Part shown: in pieces, positions 51,589 to 64,000 of the stretch
Layout of the letters: every line of letters begins with the position of its first letter
Position numbering within the stretch: the first letter of the stretch is position 1
NCBI GenBank assembly: GCA_029261065.1
Contig: JAJDCB010000026.1
Coordinates: 166,320-230,319 of the forward strand
Source: Candidatus Omnitrophota bacterium
GTDB taxonomy: Bacteria; Omnitrophota; Gorgyraeia; Zapsychrales; Zapsychraceae
Reading direction: 5' to 3'
Length of the DNA: 64,000 bases
Translations under genes and position numbers: made by a program
The notes under the pieces: generated by a model
Databases searched by the model: none
Told to the model about the DNA's origin: nothing
Seen by the model: the letters and a program-made list of their open reading frames with translations, nothing else

Positions 51589-53166
51589 TTGATTATGCGA
51601 ATAGAAAAGAAAGTCACTAGAGCGTTTTTTTTGATTCTTGTACTCATTGTCTTCTGTCTGGGCTTGACTCATACAACAAAGGCAAATGAGTATGATTTGG
51701 AAAATAACTCTTCAGAAGAACTCACAGCTAAAGCCTGGGCCGCTCTCAAAGAAAGAGACGTTGAAGCTGTGTTAGTTTATACAAATGAATGTATAAATTT
51801 GTATGCCGGTCGTGCTAAGAGAATGCAGGCTGAGTTAGAAAGTTATCCAACGGGTTCTAATGATGACGTTCATCAATATTGGGCTATCAACGATGTAGCC
51901 ACTTCATTATACATTCAGGCGGAGGCTTTTCGTGAAGTGAACATGATGGAGGAAGCCACAGAAGTCTACATTAAAATAATAAACGATTATAGTTTTGGCC
52001 AGACATGGGATCCAAGGGGCTGGTTTTGGAAGCCGGCTGAAGCCGCACAGGATAGGTTAGACGTTATTGAGTCGGGTAAGAATATAGATTTTGGGAATTA
52101 TTCTTCGGAGTTCTTGACGACGCAAGCATGGAATGCCTTAAATACTGGCGATCTTGACTCGGTCGATGACTACGCAGATAAGGTGATTAGCTTATATGCT
52201 GAGAAAGCTAAGGAGATGCAAAATTTTTTGGAAGACTATCCTTTGGGGTCAAATGAGGACATTCATCTTTTTTCAGCGCTCAATGATGTCGGAACTGTTT
52301 ATTTTATTAAAGCGCAAGCGCAAGAGAAAAAAGATGATAAAGATGGGGCTATCTATTATTATAAAAAAATAATTAACAGTTATTCTTACTCCCAGTGTTG
52401 GAATCCAGAAGGCTGGTTTTGGAAGCCGGCTGAAGGCGCGAAGGACAGAATACATATTATTAGGTCGGGTAAGAATATAGATTTCGGGAATTATTCTTCG
52501 GAATTTTTGACAACGCAAGCATGGAAGGCTTTAAATGCTGGAGACTTTGAGTCGGTCAATGACTATGCAGATAAGGTGATTAGTTTATATGCCGATAAAG
52601 CCAAAGAAATGCAAGACGCATTGAGCGGGTATCCCTGGGAGTCAAATGCAATTATTCATTCCCACTGGGCGTTGAATGATGTAGGCACCGTTTATTTTAT
52701 AAAGGGAGAAGCGGAAAGGAAGGCGGGCAACAATAAAAGAGCTATTAACTATTATGAAAAGGTTGTTAGTAATTTTTATTTCTCACAGTGCTGGGATCCA
52801 GAAGATTGGTTTTGGAAGCCGGCTGATGCAGCTCAACAGGCTTTAGATGAACTAGAAGATGAAGCGCAGAAGGCTAAAAAATACGCTCATATGAAAAGTT
52901 CAAAAAGAATCGGTGCTGATACGAAAAATATTACGGATAATAAGTTAGGCGTTGAAGGTGGTTTAGTCGTTTCTAATATGACTTATGGGAGTAAAAGTCC
53001 AATGATTGGAAGTATAGAGAATAGTGAAGTCATTTTTAACAATCAGAGTGAAAGTGAAGATGAAAATAAAGACAGTGTATGGGGAAAACTTTGGTGGAAA
53101 GTTATCATTCCAATATCAATATCGGTGATAGCAGCGGCATTAATTTTAAAATTCGTAAAGAAATAA
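51589..53166 (+). CDS. Secreted, C-terminally membrane-anchored protein made of three GWFWKPAEAA repeats
   Basis: Signal peptide. Three ~135-aa repeats each ending Q.WDP.GWFWKPAE[AG]A. Ser/Asn-rich linker. C-terminal TM helix (VIIPISISVIAAALIL). Confidence 0.5.
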   Translation: MIMRIEKKVTRAFFLILVLIVFCLGLTHTTKANEYDLENNSSEELTAKAWAALKERDVEAVLVYTNECINLYAGRAKRMQAELESYPTGSNDDVHQYWAINDVATSLYIQAEAFREVNMMEEATEVYIKIINDYSFGQTWDPRGWFWKPAEAAQDRLDVIESGKNIDFGNYSSEFLTTQAWNALNTGDLDSVDDYADKVISLYAEKAKEMQNFLEDYPLGSNEDIHLFSALNDVGTVYFIKAQAQEKKDDKDGAIYYYKKIINSYSYSQCWNPEGWFWKPAEGAKDRIHIIRSGKNIDFGNYSSEFLTTQAWKALNAGDFESVNDYADKVISLYADKAKEMQDALSGYPWESNAIIHSHWALNDVGTVYFIKGEAERKAGNNKRAINYYEKVVSNFYFSQCWDPEDWFWKPADAAQQALDELEDEAQKAKKYAHMKSSKRIGADTKNITDNKLGVEGGLVVSNMTYGSKSPMIGSIENSEVIFNNQSESEDENKDSVWGKLWWKVIIPISISVIAAALILKFVKK

Positions 53167-54981: not shown

Positions 54982-56124
54982 ATGAACTGGAGACAATCAG
55001 AAATTAAAATTATTGGTTATGTGTTAGCCCTTCTCTATGCCATTTCCTTTTTGGCATATTATAATTTTTATCAATTTGTTACACTTAATGCTCCAGACGT
55101 TCAGGCGATGAAGTTGGTGTCCCTTTCGGTGATAGCTACATTCTTCGCTATTCTTTTTGTAGGTTCCATAGCTGTTGCTCAATTAAAAGAATGGGGGCGC
55201 ATTGTTATTGTATCTGCCAATCTTATGATGGGCATTTATTTGGCTATTCCGTATATAAATCCTGCGGACATCCTTCCGTTAAGTTACATCATCATGAATG
55301 TTGTTATATTTCTTTATTTTATTCAAGATAAAGTGAAGTCTCGTTTTAATATGATCATCGACGGCAAATGGCGTAGCATATTAGTCATCGATGACGATGA
55401 AACATTGCTTAAAACTATTCGCCCCATTCTTATCTCCAAAGGTTACTCGGTCTTAACAGCCATGACAGGAGAAGATGGTTTGCAAGCTGCTAAAAAACAT
55501 AAACCGGATTTAATCATTTTAGATGTTATTCTTCCAGGCATAAAGGGAAGAGATGTGTGTCGTAAAATAAAAGAAGATAAAACAACGACACATATTCCGG
55601 TTGTATTTTTGACATCGAAAAGTTCTGAATCTGATATTGAAGCAGAACTAGATGCTGGTGCGATAACACATTTGACGAAACCTGTTAATGCGACCATTTT
55701 AAGTTCTACAGTAAGAAATATTTTAGATGCAGAGTCAAAAGATCGTCCGGAATGGCGAAGTATATTAGTTATTGATGACGATCTAACGTATCTAACGACA
55801 TTGCGTCAATCATTGTTATCACATGGTTACTCGGTTTTAACAGCGAGTTCAGGAGAGGAAGGCCTTGCAATTGCTAAGAAACAAAAACCCGAACTCATTT
55901 TGTTGGATGTTATTATGCCAGGCCTTAAGGGTCGAGAAGTTTGCGAAAAACTTAAAGAAGGATCTGAGACTGTAGATATCCCAGTCGTTTTTTTAACAGC
56001 TAAAAATTCTCCAGATGATATTAAGGCAGAGTTAGAAGTTGGGGCAGTGACACATTTGACAAAGCCAGTCGATACCAAAGAGTTAATTTCGACAATCAGT
56101 AATATATTACATTTACAAAGTTAA
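54982..56124 (+). CDS. Membrane-anchored tandem receiver (REC-REC) protein with no output domain
   Basis: ~110-aa N-terminal region with 3-4 TM helices. Two ~125-aa CheY-like receiver domains (phospho-acceptor LIILDV and LILLDV; TKP motifs) share ~60% identity with each other. Confidence 0.65.
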   Translation: MNWRQSEIKIIGYVLALLYAISFLAYYNFYQFVTLNAPDVQAMKLVSLSVIATFFAILFVGSIAVAQLKEWGRIVIVSANLMMGIYLAIPYINPADILPLSYIIMNVVIFLYFIQDKVKSRFNMIIDGKWRSILVIDDDETLLKTIRPILISKGYSVLTAMTGEDGLQAAKKHKPDLIILDVILPGIKGRDVCRKIKEDKTTTHIPVVFLTSKSSESDIEAELDAGAITHLTKPVNATILSSTVRNILDAESKDRPEWRSILVIDDDLTYLTTLRQSLLSHGYSVLTASSGEEGLAIAKKQKPELILLDVIMPGLKGREVCEKLKEGSETVDIPVVFLTAKNSPDDIKAELEVGAVTHLTKPVDTKELISTISNILHLQS

Positions 56125-56162: not shown

Positions 56163-57086
56163 ATGAAATTTCAAGAGCGCGTTAAACGATTTAAAAGAGC
56201 TTTCGCTCGTTATTGCCTTTATTTTACATCTTGGATGTTTAAAAGAATGCCGTACTCTTTTGTTAAGGGGATGGCAAATTTTTTTGTTACGATTGGTTAT
56301 ACGTTAACTATTCGTCAGAAAAAAATAGCTTACGACAGTTTACAGATTGCTTTTGGAGATGAAAAGAGCGATCAGGAAATTCGATCTATTGTAAAAAAAT
56401 GTTTTGCGAATTTAGGGCGCGGGATGATTGAGTTGGTTTATTTGATGGATCATCCATCCCTTATAAAAGAAAATGTTGTCATAGAAGGTATGGAGCATTT
56501 AGAGCAGGCGTTTAAGAAGGGAAAGGGAGTTGTTGCTGTAAGTGCTCATTTTGGAAGCTTTCCGTTAATGTTGCTAAAGTTCGCGCAAGAAGGATATAAA
56601 ACCAACGCCATCATTCGTCCCACACGAGATGAGACTATTGAGAAATACTTTTTTAAACTGCGTTCGCGTCTAGGTTTAAACACAGTTTATAGTCATCCAC
56701 GCAAAAAATGTGTCGATACCTCGATTCGCGTTTTACGTAATAATGAACTGCTCTTTATTCCTCTTGATCAAAACTTTGGAAGTGGGGGCGGTGTTTTTGT
56801 TGATTTCTTTGGTCAAAAAGCAGCCACAGCAACAGGTCCTGTTGTTTTCTCAAAGCGAACGGGTGCACCGGTGATTCCAATGTTTATTGTTCGGCTAGAT
56901 AATAATACTCATAAAGTTATCATTGAACCTGAAATACCTTTGGAGTCACATGAAGATGAAAAGGAAATGATTCAAATTAATACAGCCAAGATTACAAAGT
57001 TGATAGAGCGTTATGTGCGGAAGTATCCGGAAGAGTGGGGTTGGATGCATCGGAGATGGAAGAGTAAGCCGCCTGGGGAAGAGTGA
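56163..57086 (+). CDS. LpxL/LpxM-family lipid A (Kdo2-lipid IVA) late acyltransferase
   Basis: N-terminal membrane anchor. Lysophospholipid-acyltransferase-like HX4D region (AVSAHFGSF). 307 aa. Confidence 0.65.
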   Translation: MKFQERVKRFKRAFARYCLYFTSWMFKRMPYSFVKGMANFFVTIGYTLTIRQKKIAYDSLQIAFGDEKSDQEIRSIVKKCFANLGRGMIELVYLMDHPSLIKENVVIEGMEHLEQAFKKGKGVVAVSAHFGSFPLMLLKFAQEGYKTNAIIRPTRDETIEKYFFKLRSRLGLNTVYSHPRKKCVDTSIRVLRNNELLFIPLDQNFGSGGGVFVDFFGQKAATATGPVVFSKRTGAPVIPMFIVRLDNNTHKVIIEPEIPLESHEDEKEMIQINTAKITKLIERYVRKYPEEWGWMHRRWKSKPPGEE

Positions 57087-59299: not shown

Positions 59300-59620
59300 T
59301 TGAAGTATTAAGTGGGTAACTTCAGAGGCCAAATAATATTGTCATGCTCAAATAAATAGCGTTTAGCTATTTTTTTGAGTGCTCAAACAACCTTCGCTCG
59401 ATAGGAAATAAGCAATAATAAAAGTTGTTTTGCTTATTTCCCTAGCTTTTTCTAAAATTAAGGGTCAAGGCCATATGATCACAAGAGCGAGTTCGTCGCA
59501 AAGCGACGTTGTCTGAGCGAATGATCATATGGCCTTGACCCTTAATTGATTGTAAGCTAGCGGCTTCGGAACTGCGCGTGACAACATTATTTAGCCTCTG
59601 AAGCTACCCACTTAAATTTC
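59300..59620. mobile_element. MITE-like non-coding element, copy 2 (~320 bp, inverted relative to copy 1)
   Basis: Terminal inverted repeats ATTAAGTGGGTAACTTCAGAGGCCAAATAATATTGTCATGC / reverse complement. Internal 20-bp-arm hairpin GGGTCAAGGCCATATGATCA...TGATCATATGGCCTTGACCC. Internal segments align with the reverse complement of 29931-30235. Confidence 0.55.
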
Positions 59621-59639
59621 CAAGGAACCTAAATAATCA

Positions 59640-61070
59640 ATGCTTTTTAACTCCCTAGAATTCCTCATATTCTTTACTATTGTTTACAGTCTCTATCTTG
59701 TTTGTAACCATCAATGGCAAAACCGAATGCTTTTGGTTGCGAGTTATGTCTTTTATGGTTGTTGGGACTGGCGATTTCTTTCTCTTATTTTTGTCTCAAC
59801 TCTTCTAGATTATGTCTGCGGCCTAAGAATGGCTTCACGGCCCAAAGATAAGCGAAAGATTTTTCTTTGGATCAGTTTAGGAGTTAATCTTACTCTCCTT
59901 GGTTTCTTTAAATACTTCAATTTTTTCACTGCAAATGTAATTGATTTTTTGGCGTTGATTAACGTTGATACCAATATCACCTTACTCAATATTATCCTTC
60001 CTGTCGGTATTTCTTTTTATACGTTTCAATCCCTGAGTTACACCATTGATATTTATAGGGGAGAGATCAAGCCTACGCGCAACTTTATTGATTTCGCCCT
60101 TTATGTTGCGTTGTTTACTCAATTAGTGGCGGGACCTATTGAGCGCGCTAAGCATTTATTACCTCAGGTGATTAAACCCCGCACAACATCAATGACGCAT
60201 TTTTATGAGGGATGTTTTTTAATTTTTTGGGGACTATTTGAGAAGATTTTTATTGCAGGGAATTTGGCCAAGATTGTAGATCCAATTTTTGCAGCAGAGG
60301 GCTCTTATGAAGGGTTGTCTGTTCTTGTTGGAATGTATGCGTTTTCTTTTCAAATTTTTTGTGACTTCGATGCGTATTCGAATATCGCCAAAGGATTGGG
60401 GCGATGTATGGGCTTTGATATCATGACTAATTTTAACTTGCCCTTTTTTGTCACCAACATGCAAGACTTTTGGAATCGTTGGCACATCTCTTTAAGTCTT
60501 TGGATACGAGACTATCTTTACTTTCCTCTTTTTCAAGCTTTAAAGAAGTTTAAAGGTAATATAAGAGTCTACATCACGTTATTGATTTCAATGACTCTTA
60601 TTGGTCTTTGGCATGGGGCGTCATGGAATTTTGTTGTGTTTGGTGTTTATCATGGGATCTTGCTGGCCATCTATGTGATGATCCGTCTGTATTGTCAGAC
60701 CTGGGTTAATCCGAAATCTCAATTGATGAAAGGTGTGTGGCATGTGGCGCGTGTCGTCTTTGCTTTTCATTTGATTGCCGTGGGAATGCTCATTTTTCGT
60801 GTGCAGACAATGGGACAGGCTGCGCGTATGCTGGGATCGCTTATAACAAACTTACAGTGTGATCAAACGGTAATAAATAGTTTTGTATTATTTCTTTTGA
60901 TTATCACACCACTTTTAGTCGTTCAGTTTGGACAACTTAAAACCAAGAATTTGATGTTTCTCTATAATCAACATTGGCTTGTTAAAACATTCGCATACGC
61001 CTTTATGAGTTATTTGCTTCTTGGCTGGGGGATTATGCAAACAGAGGAGTTTATTTACTTTCAATTTTAG
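59640..61070 (+). CDS. MBOAT-family membrane O-acyltransferase (DltB/AlgI/PatA-like)
   Basis: 476 aa, polytopic. Conserved His in LIGLWHGASWNFVVFG. Typical MBOAT core. Confidence 0.8.
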   Translation: MLFNSLEFLIFFTIVYSLYLVCNHQWQNRMLLVASYVFYGCWDWRFLSLIFVSTLLDYVCGLRMASRPKDKRKIFLWISLGVNLTLLGFFKYFNFFTANVIDFLALINVDTNITLLNIILPVGISFYTFQSLSYTIDIYRGEIKPTRNFIDFALYVALFTQLVAGPIERAKHLLPQVIKPRTTSMTHFYEGCFLIFWGLFEKIFIAGNLAKIVDPIFAAEGSYEGLSVLVGMYAFSFQIFCDFDAYSNIAKGLGRCMGFDIMTNFNLPFFVTNMQDFWNRWHISLSLWIRDYLYFPLFQALKKFKGNIRVYITLLISMTLIGLWHGASWNFVVFGVYHGILLAIYVMIRLYCQTWVNPKSQLMKGVWHVARVVFAFHLIAVGMLIFRVQTMGQAARMLGSLITNLQCDQTVINSFVLFLLIITPLLVVQFGQLKTKNLMFLYNQHWLVKTFAYAFMSYLLLGWGIMQTEEFIYFQF

Positions 61071-61073
61071 ACG

Positions 61074-62390
61074 ATGACACATTCAAAACATAATTCTATT
61101 TTTATAAAACTCTTTCGTATTTTTCTTTTTATCATCTTTTTAGAAGTTTTTCTTATTTGTGGGGGTGTGATTACGAAAGCTTATCAAGACCAGCACAATA
61201 AAAGGAGTTTGGGTAAGGACTATGAATATCGTATTTTAGTGTTGGGCGATTCCTTAAGCCACGCTGGAGGAGTGGATTCTTATCCGCTTCAATTAGAGAG
61301 ACTGCTCAATAAATCTCAATCAGACGTAATTTTTAAAGTCATTAATGAATCTTATCCTGCTCAGAACTCTAATATCATTCGAGAGAAAATTGATGAATGG
61401 ATTAACGAATACCAGCCGCATCTCGCTGTCACGATGTTTGGTATGAATGACGATGTTGATTTGGTGGCCTTTGATCAAAGGGATGAACCGCAAACTTTAA
61501 GTGCGACACTTAATAAATTTAAAGTTATGCGTTTAACCAAAAGCCTTTGGAAAGATATCATAAATCATTTTTCAGATGAGAGTGATGAAGCGCTCAGCAT
61601 GGAGAAGAATGATACGAAAGAAGCTCAAGATCAACCTAAAACAGGACCTGTTCCGCCTAAGTTTTCTTCCTTTATGATGCAAGGTATCAAATTGAATCAA
61701 CAGGGACAATATGCGCCAGCAGAGAAGATCTTTAAAGTGCTGTCACAAACAAATTTTGATGATACCTTCACCAAACGCTCGAATCGAGAATATTACAACA
61801 GTCTTTTTGGACAAAAGAAGTTTGAACAAGCCGTTAGGCAACTGAAACCATTTTTTCAAGATGACGCATGGGATTTTTTCGCCAGTGAAAGAGTAAAAAT
61901 TTTATGTAAAGATTCACAAGCAGCCCAACATACAATCACGATGTTTAAAACGATGATTCAAGAACGCCCCAAGGCAGAACGTTTTTACAATCTAACGGGA
62001 GCTTGTCACGCCGCCCAAAATCAAAACAAAGAAGCTGATCAATATTTTCAAGAAGCCAAAAAATTAAGTTCAAGCTCCATCAATCCCGTCACACAAGACA
62101 ATTATTTGTATGTCATAGATCGTTTAACCGAAAACAATATCTACATTGTTGCCATGCAATATCCAAGAAGAGATATCGAACCTCTAAAAAACATGCTTCG
62201 TTCATCAAGTACATTCGCAGACATTCATTTCGTTGATAACGATCAAACATTTGAATCTGCACTATCCAGCAAATCCTACGATGAGATCTTTATCGATCGA
62301 TCATTTGGAGACTTTGGACATTGTTCAGAAGAAGGCTATGCTCTTATTGCAGAGAATTTAGCAGGAGTTATTAAAGATATTGTTTATTAG
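61074..62390 (+). CDS. Membrane-anchored SGNH/GDSL-type esterase/transferase with a helical (TPR-like) insertion (DltD/AlgJ-like)
   Basis: N-terminal TM. Block I GDSLS (VLGDSLSHAGG). Block III GMND (FGMNDD). Block V DxxH near the C-terminus (GDFGH). ~250-aa helical insertion between blocks III and V. Confidence 0.6.
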   Translation: MTHSKHNSIFIKLFRIFLFIIFLEVFLICGGVITKAYQDQHNKRSLGKDYEYRILVLGDSLSHAGGVDSYPLQLERLLNKSQSDVIFKVINESYPAQNSNIIREKIDEWINEYQPHLAVTMFGMNDDVDLVAFDQRDEPQTLSATLNKFKVMRLTKSLWKDIINHFSDESDEALSMEKNDTKEAQDQPKTGPVPPKFSSFMMQGIKLNQQGQYAPAEKIFKVLSQTNFDDTFTKRSNREYYNSLFGQKKFEQAVRQLKPFFQDDAWDFFASERVKILCKDSQAAQHTITMFKTMIQERPKAERFYNLTGACHAAQNQNKEADQYFQEAKKLSSSSINPVTQDNYLYVIDRLTENNIYIVAMQYPRRDIEPLKNMLRSSSTFADIHFVDNDQTFESALSSKSYDEIFIDRSFGDFGHCSEEGYALIAENLAGVIKDIVY

Positions 62391-62530
62391 GCGAATCTAG
62401 GCGAATCACGCAAATTAAGTGTAAAGCGATATGATCATTCGCTCAGACAAACTCCCTTCGGTCGTAACTCGCTCGGTGATCATATCGCTTTACACTTAAC
62501 GGAAGAGTCGGCGAAGAGAGAATGTATCTT
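62391..62530. mobile_element. Solo hairpin module of the MITE family (copy 3)
   Basis: Perfect 21-bp arms AAGTGTAAAGCGATATGATCA...TGATCATATCGCTTTACACTT (62417-62507). Shares the ATATGATCATTCGCTCRGAC core with copies 1 and 2. Confidence 0.45.
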
Positions 62531-62590
62531 CACATATTTTGCGATTTATGATATATTGACGTTCCATTAAACAATTTAATATTTTTCCCA

Positions 62591-62887
62591 ATGATCAACG
62601 AAGAACAAGTAACCGAAGCCATTTATGCAGCTATTGATTCGGTTAATGAAACCTTACCAGCTGAGAAGCACATTAAAAAAGCCTTAGATACTGTTTTATT
62701 TGATATTGATGGTTATGTGGACTCTTTGGGTTTAACGATTTTAGTTGTTGCTATTGAACGAAAGGTTGATGAGATGTTTAATCAAAGCATCAATCTGATG
62801 AACGAACAACCAATGGCAACAAGCACCGGTCCATTTTCTAATGTCAAAAATTTAATTGATCACGTGAAAGTTTTATTAGAGGAATAA
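62591..62887 (+). CDS. Acyl/peptidyl carrier protein (DltC-like)
   Basis: 98 aa. Phosphopantetheine-attachment Ser motif (DGYVDSLGLTILVVAIE). Confidence 0.6.
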   Translation: MINEEQVTEAIYAAIDSVNETLPAEKHIKKALDTVLFDIDGYVDSLGLTILVVAIERKVDEMFNQSINLMNEQPMATSTGPFSNVKNLIDHVKVLLEE

Positions 62888-62890
62888 TAT

Positions 62891-64000
62891 ATGGATCCTC
62901 AAAAAATTCTTTTGATTTCAGATTTTAATTGCGAAATTCTTAAAGGTTATCTGGATAACAACGCGGAAGTTCCTTCATTGCAAGCTTCATGCTCCACTTT
63001 TGGCCAACCCATTCAAACCCTATTAAATCCTTCCGATCCTATTTGGCAATCAAAATATGATGCGTTATTGATTTGGACGCAGCCGCAGGCTGTCATTGAA
63101 TCGTTTCATGATTGTCTTAATTTCAAACACCCTTCTCTCGATACCATCCTTAATCAAGTCGATGAGTATGCTGATATTATTTTAGAGAATAAAACAAAGG
63201 CTTCGCATATCTTTATCCCTACATGGAGCGTTCCTTCATGTTTTCGTGGTTTTGCCCTTCTTGATCATAAACAAACAGGCATCGCGTATGTTCTTTCACA
63301 AATGAATGCGCGCTTAGCATCTCGTTTTATGAATGAAGACAATATTTTCATTTTAGATTCTCAAAAATGGATTGAATCCGTCGGGCCAAAGGCTTTTAAT
63401 TCTAAGATGTGGTATCTTTCTAAGACACCTTTTGATCTGACTGTTTTGCAAAAAGTGGCTGTGGATATTAAAGCAGCATTGTGCGCCTTAGCTGGGCAGA
63501 CAAAGAAATTGGTTATTGTCGATCTTGATGACACCCTTTGGGGAGGCATTGTTGGAGATGTGGGTTGGGAACATTTACGTTTAGGGGGACATGATGCGAT
63601 CGGGGAGGCTTATCTTGATTTTCAAAAGGCTTTGAAATCTTTAACCAACCGAGGCATTCTTCTCGGTATCGTTAGTAAGAATGAAGAATCGATCGCCCTT
63701 GATGCTATTGATCAAAATCCTGAAATGTTTCTAAAGCGGGAAAACTTTGCTGCTTGGCGCATTAATTGGGACGACAAGGTTCAAAATATTTTAGATTTAG
63801 TTGAAGAGCTCAATTTAGGATTACAATCAGTTGTTTTTATTGATGATAATCCCGTTGAACGTGCCCGGGTTAAAGAGGTTTTACCGGAATTGCTCGTGCC
63901 TGACTGGCCTAAAGATCATTCTCTTTTTAAAGAGACCCTTCTTTCGATGTCTTGTTTTGATCAAAGTGTGTTAACAGAAGAAGATAGCAAGCGTAATGAA
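62891..64000 (+). CDS. FkbH-like HAD-superfamily (subfamily IIIC) loader enzyme, N-terminal ~370 aa (continues beyond window)
   Basis: Open frame from the ATG at 62891 to the window end. HAD motif I LVIVDLDDTLWGGIVGD. Motif III SKNEES. Motif IV IDDNPVE. FkbH-like N-terminal domain. Confidence 0.6.
   Translation, partial: MDPQKILLISDFNCEILKGYLDNNAEVPSLQASCSTFGQPIQTLLNPSDPIWQSKYDALLIWTQPQAVIESFHDCLNFKHPSLDTILNQVDEYADIILENKTKASHIFIPTWSVPSCFRGFALLDHKQTGIAYVLSQMNARLASRFMNEDNIFILDSQKWIESVGPKAFNSKMWYLSKTPFDLTVLQKVAVDIKAALCALAGQTKKLVIVDLDDTLWGGIVGDVGWEHLRLGGHDAIGEAYLDFQKALKSLTNRGILLGIVSKNEESIALDAIDQNPEMFLKRENFAAWRINWDDKVQNILDLVEELNLGLQSVVFIDDNPVERARVKEVLPELLVPDWPKDHSLFKETLLSMSCFDQSVLTEEDSKRNE

Follow-up and report, generated by a model that had tools for sequence, protein, structure and literature searches.

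It has been stated that the Dlt system is the sole pathway combining a membrane-bound O-acyltransferase (MBOAT) with an SGNH protein that makes use of a carrier protein, the other MBOAT/SGNH pathways lacking one and using acyl-CoA (PMC12148441, 2025). It has also been reported that in PatA the tyrosine of a FxYxxF motif is auto-acylated and then donates to the SGNH partner, that in the Dlt system this motif is carried by a separate microprotein, DltX, and that the tyrosine-shuttle mechanism is established for both PatA and DltX (PMC12148441). Here we describe a gene cluster at the end of a 64 kb stretch of DNA from a Candidatus Omnitrophota bacterium (contig JAJDCB010000026.1, positions 166,320 to 230,319; hereafter, the window), which encodes an MBOAT, a membrane-anchored SGNH/TPR protein, an acyl carrier protein (ACP) and an FkbH-type HAD-IIIC loader, followed beyond the window by a fusion of dehydratase and ketoreductase domains (DH-KR). 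Having compared the window with public contigs and loci (numbered L001 and so on), we lean slightly towards the view that it represents a second family of carrier-protein-dependent transmembrane acylation, in which a PatA/AlgI-type MBOAT subclade would have re-evolved a docking site convergently with DltB and would take FkbH-loaded glyceryl, O-methylglyceryl or lactyl groups from a modular donor cassette to envelope polymers in Omnitrophota, Planctomycetota and other mostly uncultured phyla. Full-text literature searches found no described FkbH/ACP/MBOAT/SGNH system, in agreement with the original prediction for this DNA, which had not recognised the combination as a described one.

Two groups of known systems resemble the cluster most closely. 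As in Dlt, the gene of a small dedicated carrier protein accompanies those of the MBOAT and of an SGNH-fold protein anchored in the membrane; in the PDB the MBOAT matches DltB best, both in sequence and in fold, the two MBOATs are both without PLGGN(R/K) at the docking site, and both systems use a FxYxxF tyrosine shuttle. Unlike Dlt, the window has an FkbH-type HAD loader instead of DltA, its cargo would be a glycolysis-derived hydroxy acid rather than an amino acid, and the shuttle motif is on the MBOAT itself; furthermore, the MBOAT, ACP and SGNH protein miss the DltB, DltC and DltD hidden Markov model (HMM) thresholds, and the host belongs to a diderm lineage not expected to have teichoic acids, whereas Dlt D-alanylates the teichoic acids of Firmicutes. 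PatA/PatB, AlgI/AlgJ/AlgX and WssH/WssI, which use acetyl-CoA to O-acetylate peptidoglycan, alginate and cellulose, share with the window an MBOAT of ~470-480 residues with two extra C-terminal helices and a FxYxxF end, an adjacent N-terminally anchored SGNH protein and, presumably, transfer from His to Tyr to Ser to polymer (PMC12148441). They are said to lack a carrier protein (PMC12148441), whereas the window operon encodes one together with a loader and tailoring enzymes; in addition, the window MBOAT has lost PLGGN(R/K), the SGNH protein has a TPR insert, and the acyl group is probably lactyl or glyceryl rather than acetyl.

The donor genes have likenesses of their own. With the FkbH/OzmB loaders and the FkbH-DH-KR modules of polyketide synthases (PKS; the methoxymalonyl-ACP pathway, and the lactate starters of bryostatin BryA and FR901464) the window shares TIGR01686, the HAD DxDxT motif, a conserved Cys, a dedicated ACP and the DH and KR set for which lactyl-ACP is the proposed product. 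In contrast to those loading modules, the window proteins are free-standing with no ketosynthase or other PKS parts nearby, their DH is a MaoC/PhaJ hot-dog domain and not a PKS DH, and a transmembrane acyltransferase, not a synthase, apparently uses the product. Like the ACP-FkbH cassettes of glycan loci (e.g. cj1302, PMC7099621), in which an FkbH gene lies among surface-glycan-decorating genes, the cluster pairs carrier and loader; the likely consumers of those cassettes are cytoplasmic GNAT-like or unknown transferases, whereas here the consumer would be an MBOAT-SGNH pair acting outside the cytoplasm. Finally, Vibrio AlmEFG, which attaches glycine to lipid A, also modifies a Gram-negative envelope with a small acyl group borne on a carrier protein, but does so with the adenylase AlmE and the LpxL-family cytoplasmic-face transferase AlmG, and has no MBOAT, SGNH protein or FkbH.

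The MBOAT scored 55.6 bits against PF03062 (cut-off 27), and its best PDB sequence match was DltB (6bug, E=4e-31). An AlphaFold2 model made with 50 homologues (predicted local distance difference test, pLDDT, 90.1; predicted template modelling score, pTM, 0.89) again gave DltB as the best fold match (E=1.8e-13, TM-score 0.67), with eukaryotic MBOATs also among the best. The original prediction had called the protein DltB-like, a description that now has to be revised: against the DltB equivalog TIGR04091 it reached 177.5 bits, under the cut-off of 375, it is ~60 residues longer than DltB, with extra C-terminal helices at residues 409-435 and 446-463 of the model, and its C-terminus (…EEFIYFQF) holds the FxYxxF acyl-shuttle motif as the last six residues. 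Because of these extra helices and the terminal FxYxxF, the MBOAT is of PatA/AlgI-type architecture and is not a DltB orthologue. In place of a separate DltX microprotein the motif is fused to the MBOAT itself, and because of this fusion no DltX is needed. The predicted catalytic His325 (GLWHG) and His282 (WNRWH) are invariant in the homologues, as are F471 and Y473 of the shuttle motif in all 50 of them.

A short segment of the MBOAT distinguishes proteins encoded beside ACP and FkbH (linked) from those that are not. Unlinked MBOATs, comprising the sister clade described below (clade B), L082, the outgroups and 45 of 45 parsed distant relatives, read RDYLYIPL-GG[NS][RK]…GGLWHG; linked MBOATs read RDYLYxPL-F-x-x-L-(K/R)-x-x-(K/R)-G-N-x-R…IGLWHG in 11 of 11 cases, the window and L171 included. 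Among the 120 closest MBOAT homologue clusters, ~31 were non-GG and ~85 GG-type, and the GG segment is also missing from DltB and from the MBOATs of L024 and L029. The motif foretold linkage in all 11 unbiased look-ups, five non-GG proteins being linked and six GG-type proteins unlinked (Fisher p=0.002). Another candidate marker of the linked clade, Asn279 (FWNRWH), was dropped in favour of the GG segment; L171 has Gln at that position. In a pairwise alignment the segment corresponds to M302, V305, I306, M309 and R317 of S. thermophilus DltB, whose spacing is identical to that of Met298, Val301, Phe302, Met305 and Arg313 of L. plantarum DltB, residues reported to contact DltC in a modelled DltB-DltC complex (PMC9338922). 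In our model the segment forms the end of helix 283-300 and the loop 301-307, before the helix that bears His325.

The carrier protein carries a matching signature. Counted from the phosphopantetheine serine, all 11 MBOAT-linked ACPs carry Ile, Leu, Met or Val at position S+5; among the 66 other FkbH-associated ACPs, only ~2-3 have a hydrophobic residue there and 52 have Asn. At position S+4, Thr is found in 8 of the 11 linked proteins, and the other FkbH-associated ones have Val or Ile. In DltC1 (Ser38) the DltB contacts are Met39, Val42, Gln43 and Leu46, that is, S+1, S+4, S+5 and S+8 (PMC9338922). Since the MBOAT segment and the helix-II positions S+4 and S+5 of the ACP both map to DltB-DltC contacts, both partners have changed at positions that form the carrier-MBOAT interface in Dlt, the one system in which this interface is known.

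FkbH homologues are numerous (>5,500 at ~50% identity) and occur in many phyla; the closest named relatives of the cluster point to Omnitrophota as its source. A forward survey, in which species-representative genomes were scanned with FkbH, returned 80 loci, and because an ACP gene lies immediately upstream of FkbH in ~70 of them, ACP-FkbH can be considered a general cassette. Most of these cassettes sit among GT4 glycosyltransferases, epimerases, polysaccharide deacetylases and GNAT-like proteins and look like donors for glycan decoration; it has been reported that an fkbH-domain gene, cj1302, lies in the flagellar glycosylation island of Campylobacter jejuni (PMC7099621). Among cultured organisms, Thalassoglobus neptunius KOR42 and Novilysobacter antarcticus GW1-59 (L050, L051) carry ACP-FkbH without the MBOAT. 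In five loci, four from Omnitrophota and one from Planctomycetales, FkbH adjoins an MBOAT >50% identical to that of the window, usually together with an SGNH/TPR partner. The gene order varies among linked operons, and their junctions are tight or overlapping: we found ACP-FkbH-DHKR-MBOAT-SGNH (L059, L061, L169, L171), ACP-FkbH-MT-MBOAT-SGNH, where MT is a methyltransferase (L018, L032), ACP-FkbH-MBOAT (L003, L164) and FkbH-ACP-MBOAT-SGNH (L165). No GNAT-like or other acyltransferase able to use acyl-ACP was seen in the six MBOAT-linked operons of the genome scan (window included), whereas FkbH loci without an MBOAT usually carry GNAT-like genes beside FkbH.

The reverse survey consisted of a metagenome scan with the MBOAT alignment, which gave 80 loci, and of look-ups of the highest-ranking MBOAT homologues on long contigs. 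No ACP or FkbH was found near the 78 MBOATs of <=46% identity, and the two closest loci of the scan, L082 and L083, were also without them. Among the look-ups, L162, L164, L165, L169 and L171 were linked, and L163, L166, L167 and L168 were stand-alone MBOAT-SGNH pairs; 5 of the 11 closest, unbiased loci were linked. In a neighbour-joining tree that took in ten linked MBOATs, these ten and the unlinked L082 formed one clade (88 of 100 bootstraps), with the unlinked MBOATs as its sister, clade B (86 of 100), and the two clades together at 100%. In the closest relative, L170 (10001-15190), the module is decaying: its MBOAT, 86% identical, is a pseudogene with a frame that breaks at GLWH and a deletion of residues 326-423 (~98 codons), ACP and FkbH are gone, and DH-KR is reduced to its last ~140 residues. 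Donor and transferase genes have therefore decayed together in this locus. A gene-neighbourhood survey was among the checks named in the original prediction; in it, ACP-FkbH was linked to the MBOAT in some genome-scan and look-up loci alike, in shuffled orders. Taken together, the clade structure, the two-sided signature, the operons conserved despite their shuffled order and the joint decay in L170 favour the carrier protein as the donor of the MBOAT.

A more distant arrangement was seen in L024 (5259-11659) and L029, from Ignavibacteria and Bacteroidota, where an MBOAT of 31% identity without PLGGNR lies near ACP and FkbH. These loci also hold a KAS III (FabH-like) gene, a short SDR and an unassigned 160-residue protein. 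They could reflect a separate emergence of MBOAT acylation supplied by an ACP, perhaps one that involves chain extension.

Transfer to the acceptor polymer outside the cytoplasm is presumably the task of the SGNH/TPR protein, whose gene starts 4 nucleotides past the MBOAT stop codon. Its family matches are all sub-threshold: GDSL/SGNH models at residues 53-138, with Lipase_GDSL_2 at 30.9 bits just below the cut-off of 32.9, and TPR at 245-335. The protein consists of an N-terminal transmembrane helix, blocks I-III (residues 55-126), a helical/TPR insert and block V (residues 408-416). An alignment of 11 members showed conservation of G58-x-S60 in block I, G65-G66 in block II, G123 in block III, and D408 and G415-H416 in block V, and D126 of block III is nearly invariant. 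The original prediction had described the split triad as DltD-type. We could not uphold an assignment to DltD: no DltD family match was found at E<=0.1, and split triads are the rule among SGNH enzymes in general. The unusual feature of the protein is instead the TPR insert between blocks III and V, which measures ~240 residues here and up to ~370 in relatives and is absent in L165. A gene of this SGNH family comes next after the MBOAT in L059, L061, L018, L032, L162, L083, L163, L167 and L168; in L170 the SGNH partner is only 34% identical to that of the window.

The ACP alone gave no Pfam match over its 98 residues, and against the DltC model NF003464 it reached 16.7 bits (cut-off 68). Its serine, Ser45 in (L/I)DSLGL, is invariant across 26 homologues, 7 of which individually match PF00550, and every PDB match of the family profile is a carrier protein, DltC ranking second and third. 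The loader scored 138 bits against TIGR01686 over the part inside the window and 283.3 bits at full length (cut-off 146.65), and 56.6 bits against the HAD-IIIC model TIGR01681 (cut-off 35.75). These results bear out both assignments of the original prediction, a phosphopantetheinyl carrier for the open reading frame (ORF) at 62591 and an FkbH/HAD-IIIC enzyme for that at 62891. Across 29 homologues there is no variation at D211 and D213 of DLDDT or at C481 (LSCRV), the last of which would, on the model of OzmB, be the acyl-enzyme residue. An uncharacterised Bacteroides structure (3slr, E=2e-44) is the match of the N-terminal and HAD parts. From its family membership it follows that FkbH would be a glyceryl-ACP loader using 1,3-bisphosphoglycerate. 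One linked operon (L162, 8488-13084) has an FkbH of only 374 residues, with the N-terminal and HAD domains and without the C-terminal Cys-containing transferase domain, although ACP and MBOAT-SGNH/TPR still lie on either side; the gene is possibly a pseudogene, or the enzyme may be split.

The full FkbH gene was recovered from a Logan contig, L001 (11,946 nucleotides), which matches window 59502-64000 with 0 mismatches in 4,499 nucleotides and continues 7.4 kb past the window end. The DH-KR gene begins five bases after FkbH, and its product scored 41.3 bits for MaoC and 170.4 bits for adh_short. The DH part aligns with (R)-specific enoyl-CoA hydratases (5cpg, 1iq6) and keeps the PhaJ-type Asp/His pair (GDKSLLH); the KR part is a FabG-like classical SDR with TGASRGIG and YxxxK. 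DH-KR is the next gene after FkbH in ~12 of the 80 loci of the genome scan and also in L169 and L171, often with overlapping stop and start codons. FkbH loading modules have been taken to give lactate-ACP (PMC7901079). Because DH-KR follows FkbH, lactyl rather than glyceryl is the most likely group transferred in this genome, an assignment by analogy that we hold tentatively, at somewhat less than an even chance. The glyceryl- or glycerate-type group of the original prediction would still be what FkbH loads, and yields to lactyl in what is most likely transferred. In L018 (2417-3175) and likewise in L032, a TylF-type O-methyltransferase (PF05711, 81.6 bits) takes the place of DH-KR between FkbH and the MBOAT, which suggests an O-methylglyceryl cargo. 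Because sister loci swap DH-KR for an O-methyltransferase or for nothing, the ester would vary across the family, which probably installs lactyl, O-methylglyceryl or glyceryl esters according to the tailoring gene present.

These data can be assembled into a pathway. As a member of its family, FkbH would take 1,3-bisphosphoglycerate, strip its phosphates and load the glyceryl group on the phosphopantetheine thiol of the ACP; by analogy with FkbH-DH-KR loaders, DH would dehydrate glyceryl-ACP to the enol of pyruvoyl-ACP, which KR would reduce to lactyl-ACP. The comparative signatures point to the acyl-ACP docking on the cytoplasmic face of the MBOAT. On the model of the PatA/PatB and DltB/X/D mechanism (PMC12148441), His325 would hand the acyl group on to Tyr473 in the FIYFQF tail of the MBOAT itself, on the outer face. 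The SGNH/TPR protein would take it on Ser60 and pass it to a hydroxyl of a polymer such as polysaccharide, lipopolysaccharide (LPS) or peptidoglycan. We consider it reasonably probable, from sequence and analogy, that a hydroxy-acyl group from glycolysis is esterified onto an extracytoplasmic envelope polymer by this ACP-fed transport logic. The original prediction had proposed the same route from an FkbH-loaded acyl group through ACP, MBOAT and SGNH protein to an envelope polymer; its core idea has gained comparative support, and the function itself we still infer.

Several neighbours touch on the acceptor. In L169 (12792-21434) the module is immediately followed by a gene of at least 2,933 residues with Glycoamylase and GH94 domains, like cyclic beta-1,2-glucan synthase, which points weakly to a possible class of acceptor; the exopolysaccharide or glycan loci around the modules of L164 and L171 are likewise a weak hint. 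An LpxL-family gene is found directly upstream of a GG-type MBOAT-SGNH pair in L163 (9176-12732, Omnitrophota) and, in the window, 2.5 kb upstream of the MBOAT (56163-57086), which may be synteny or may hint at an LPS target.

It could be argued that the neighbours are two chemically independent units, an acetyl-CoA-dependent O-acetyltransferase of the PatAB/AlgIJ type and a cassette serving another transferase, brought together because both act on the same glycan. Although we regard this as unlikely, a number of observations weigh against an ACP-fed MBOAT, and some of them fit such a pair well. The PatA/AlgI architecture is that of the acetyl-CoA-using group, a fused FxYxxF and a length of 476 residues being typical of acyl-CoA-using MBOATs (PMC12148441). 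Members of the sister clade (52-59% identity; L083, L163, L166-L168) occur as stand-alone pairs with no ACP or FkbH within 6-10 kb, evidence that no adjacent cassette is required for this MBOAT lineage to work, and L016 has a linked-type ACP and FkbH-DHKR with no adjacent MBOAT. In most of the 80 loci of the forward survey the partners of ACP-FkbH are GNAT-like or unknown, in polysaccharide clusters. In the window itself, MBOAT-SGNH precedes ACP, the opposite of the order in relatives, and the 200-nucleotide gap between MBOAT-SGNH and ACP-FkbH holds a palindrome and a promoter-like site ahead of the ACP gene, so that there are maybe two transcription units. Furthermore, the clade and motif statistics ignore shared ancestry, such that a single lineage may lie behind the linked MBOATs, and likewise behind the linked ACPs; the interface was mapped through a pairwise alignment and a published homology model of the L. 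plantarum complex; the lactyl assignment draws on the polyketide-loader analogy; and the single-sequence model of the SGNH protein has a pLDDT of 41, its confident part being the N-terminal helix 5-45 alone. Independence, however, would not readily account for the loss of PLGGN(R/K), which follows linkage perfectly and is common to DltB, or for the co-variation of ACP positions S+4 and S+5 with the presence of the MBOAT. Nor does it sit easily with the lack of any other acyltransferase in the six linked genome-scan operons, with their tight or overlapping junctions, or with the joint decay of MBOAT and donor genes in L170.

Other alternatives keep part of the scheme. The transport logic might be as proposed and the cargo glyceryl (2,3-dihydroxypropanoyl) or another derivative, with DH-KR doing something else; relatives in which DH-KR is missing (L003, L164, L165) or replaced by an O-methyltransferase (L018, L032) show non-lactyl groups to be acceptable to the clade, and dehydration and reduction of the alpha-keto group are deduced from domain content. 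Against this, DH-KR directly follows FkbH in the loci counted above, its catalytic residues are intact, and the same domain trio is the proposed lactate-starter loader of polyketide synthases (PMC7901079), and we consider this variant of the scheme to be quite improbable for this genome. An FkbH-DH-KR lactate starter has reportedly been proposed for BryA and shown for FR901464. The acyl-ACP could alternatively feed a lipid or lipid A modification through the LpxL-family gene at 56163-57086, in the manner of AlmEFG, or start a small polyketide or tetronate: a Lip_A_acyltrans gene (169 bits) is indeed nearby, an LpxL-like gene is directly upstream of the related GG-type MBOAT in L163, and FkbH enzymes are best known from polyketide pathways. 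Yet three unrelated genes separate the LpxL-family gene from the cluster, no LpxL-like gene accompanies ACP-FkbH in L059, L061, L169, L171, L164 or L162, and the ~8 kb upstream and 7.4 kb downstream hold no ketosynthase, acyltransferase (AT), FabH or thioesterase, which leaves this explanation very little room. A PKS starter cassette was rejected for want of a ketosynthase or AT, and an ordinary Dlt or Alm system for want of an adenylase and with all Dlt HMM thresholds missed.

The features of the cluster are collected in Table 1.

Table 1. Genes and sites of the proposed acylation cluster, in window coordinates unless L001 is named
Feature	Position	Strand	Remarks
MBOAT transmembrane acyltransferase	59640-61070	+	476 residues; PF03062
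Membrane-anchored SGNH/TPR protein	61074-62390	+	438 residues; sub-threshold Lipase_GDSL_2, DUF459, NonGDSL and TPR matches
Best sigma-70-like promoter match of the cluster	62529-62557	+	10/12 positions, extended TG; weak evidence
Acyl carrier protein (ACP)	62591-62887	+	98 residues; phosphopantetheine site Ser45 in VDSLGLTILVVAIE
FkbH-type HAD-IIIC loader	62891-64000, cut by the window end	+	full gene 564 residues, ends at window-equivalent 64585
DH-KR fusion (beyond the window)	L001 5090-6718 = window-equivalent 64591-66219	+	542 residues; MaoC hot-dog and SDR
HAD-IA phosphatase (beyond the window)	L001 6734-7408 = window-equivalent 66235-66909	+	224 residues

The ORF listing showed four consecutive plus-strand ORFs at the coordinates given earlier for this cluster, as the original prediction had it, and its further expectation of more components downstream proved right, since on L001 FkbH is followed by DH-KR, the HAD-IA phosphatase, an H+-PPase and an SNF transporter. 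The last two are unrelated to the module. The phosphatase, which resembles phosphoglycolate phosphatase, was considered as a core part and not supported, no homologue being found beside the cassette in any MBOAT-linked relative; a 71-residue ORF past it likewise has no support as a part of the module. The lack of an adenylase, immediately downstream included, also agrees with what had been predicted: no AMP-binding or adenylase gene was found in the ~8 kb upstream of the cluster, elsewhere in the last ~23 kb of the window or in the 7.4 kb downstream on L001. Upstream, the genes are housekeeping or generic envelope genes (MurJ, UvrC, SecA, Lnt, the LpxL-family acyltransferase, a Na/Ca exchanger and DUF502), and because of this the module is self-contained and outside any glycan-synthesis locus in this genome. 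An Rfam search of the window gave no match, and the number of promoter-like sites in the region was not above the shuffle expectation.

Two palindromic elements, the only such elements in the 64 kb (0 expected), lie within window 59308-59615 and 62415-62499 and are inverted copies of one family (TTAAG…ATATGATCA-loop-TGATCATAT…CTTAA). The first, E1 (59456-59547), has 26-nucleotide perfect arms and is nested in an outer 43-nucleotide inverted repeat (59308-59350/59573-59615); the second, E2 (62415-62499), has 23-nucleotide perfect arms and lies inside the 200-nucleotide spacer. Together they flank exactly the MBOAT-SGNH pair, whose placement relative to ACP-FkbH is inverted compared to relatives. 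E1 and E2 may be a MITE-like (miniature inverted-repeat transposable) element tied to the rearrangement, or an RNA hairpin. Elsewhere in the window, positions 51589-53166 encode a 525-residue protein with an N-terminal signal or anchor, a C-terminal transmembrane helix, weak TPR matches and three internal repeats of ~150 residues (…GWFWKPAE…GKNIDFGNYSSEFLTTQAW…), and positions 54982-56124 encode a 380-residue protein with ~120 N-terminal residues of transmembrane segments and two tandem receiver domains, with no output domain.

If this reading is correct, the clade would be a counter-example to the view that only Dlt uses a carrier protein, differing from Dlt in its loader and in the class of its cargo. 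Bacterial MBOATs would be able to evolve their choice of donor through a short determinant, PLGGN(R/K) versus PLFxxL(K/R)…GNxR, and this determinant could be used to annotate thousands of 'AlgI/DltB-like' genes. The system would also add new envelope chemistry, in the form of lactyl, glyceryl or O-methylglyceryl esters on polysaccharide, LPS or peptidoglycan, and would tie central glycolysis, at 1,3-bisphosphoglycerate, directly to surface decoration. A D-lactyl ester differs from a D-alanyl ester in bearing a hydroxyl instead of an amino group and no positive charge, and would thus offer a natural contrast to D-alanylation. The system is carried by Omnitrophota and further phyla about which little is known; their surfaces are relevant to the host-attached lifestyles that have been proposed for them.

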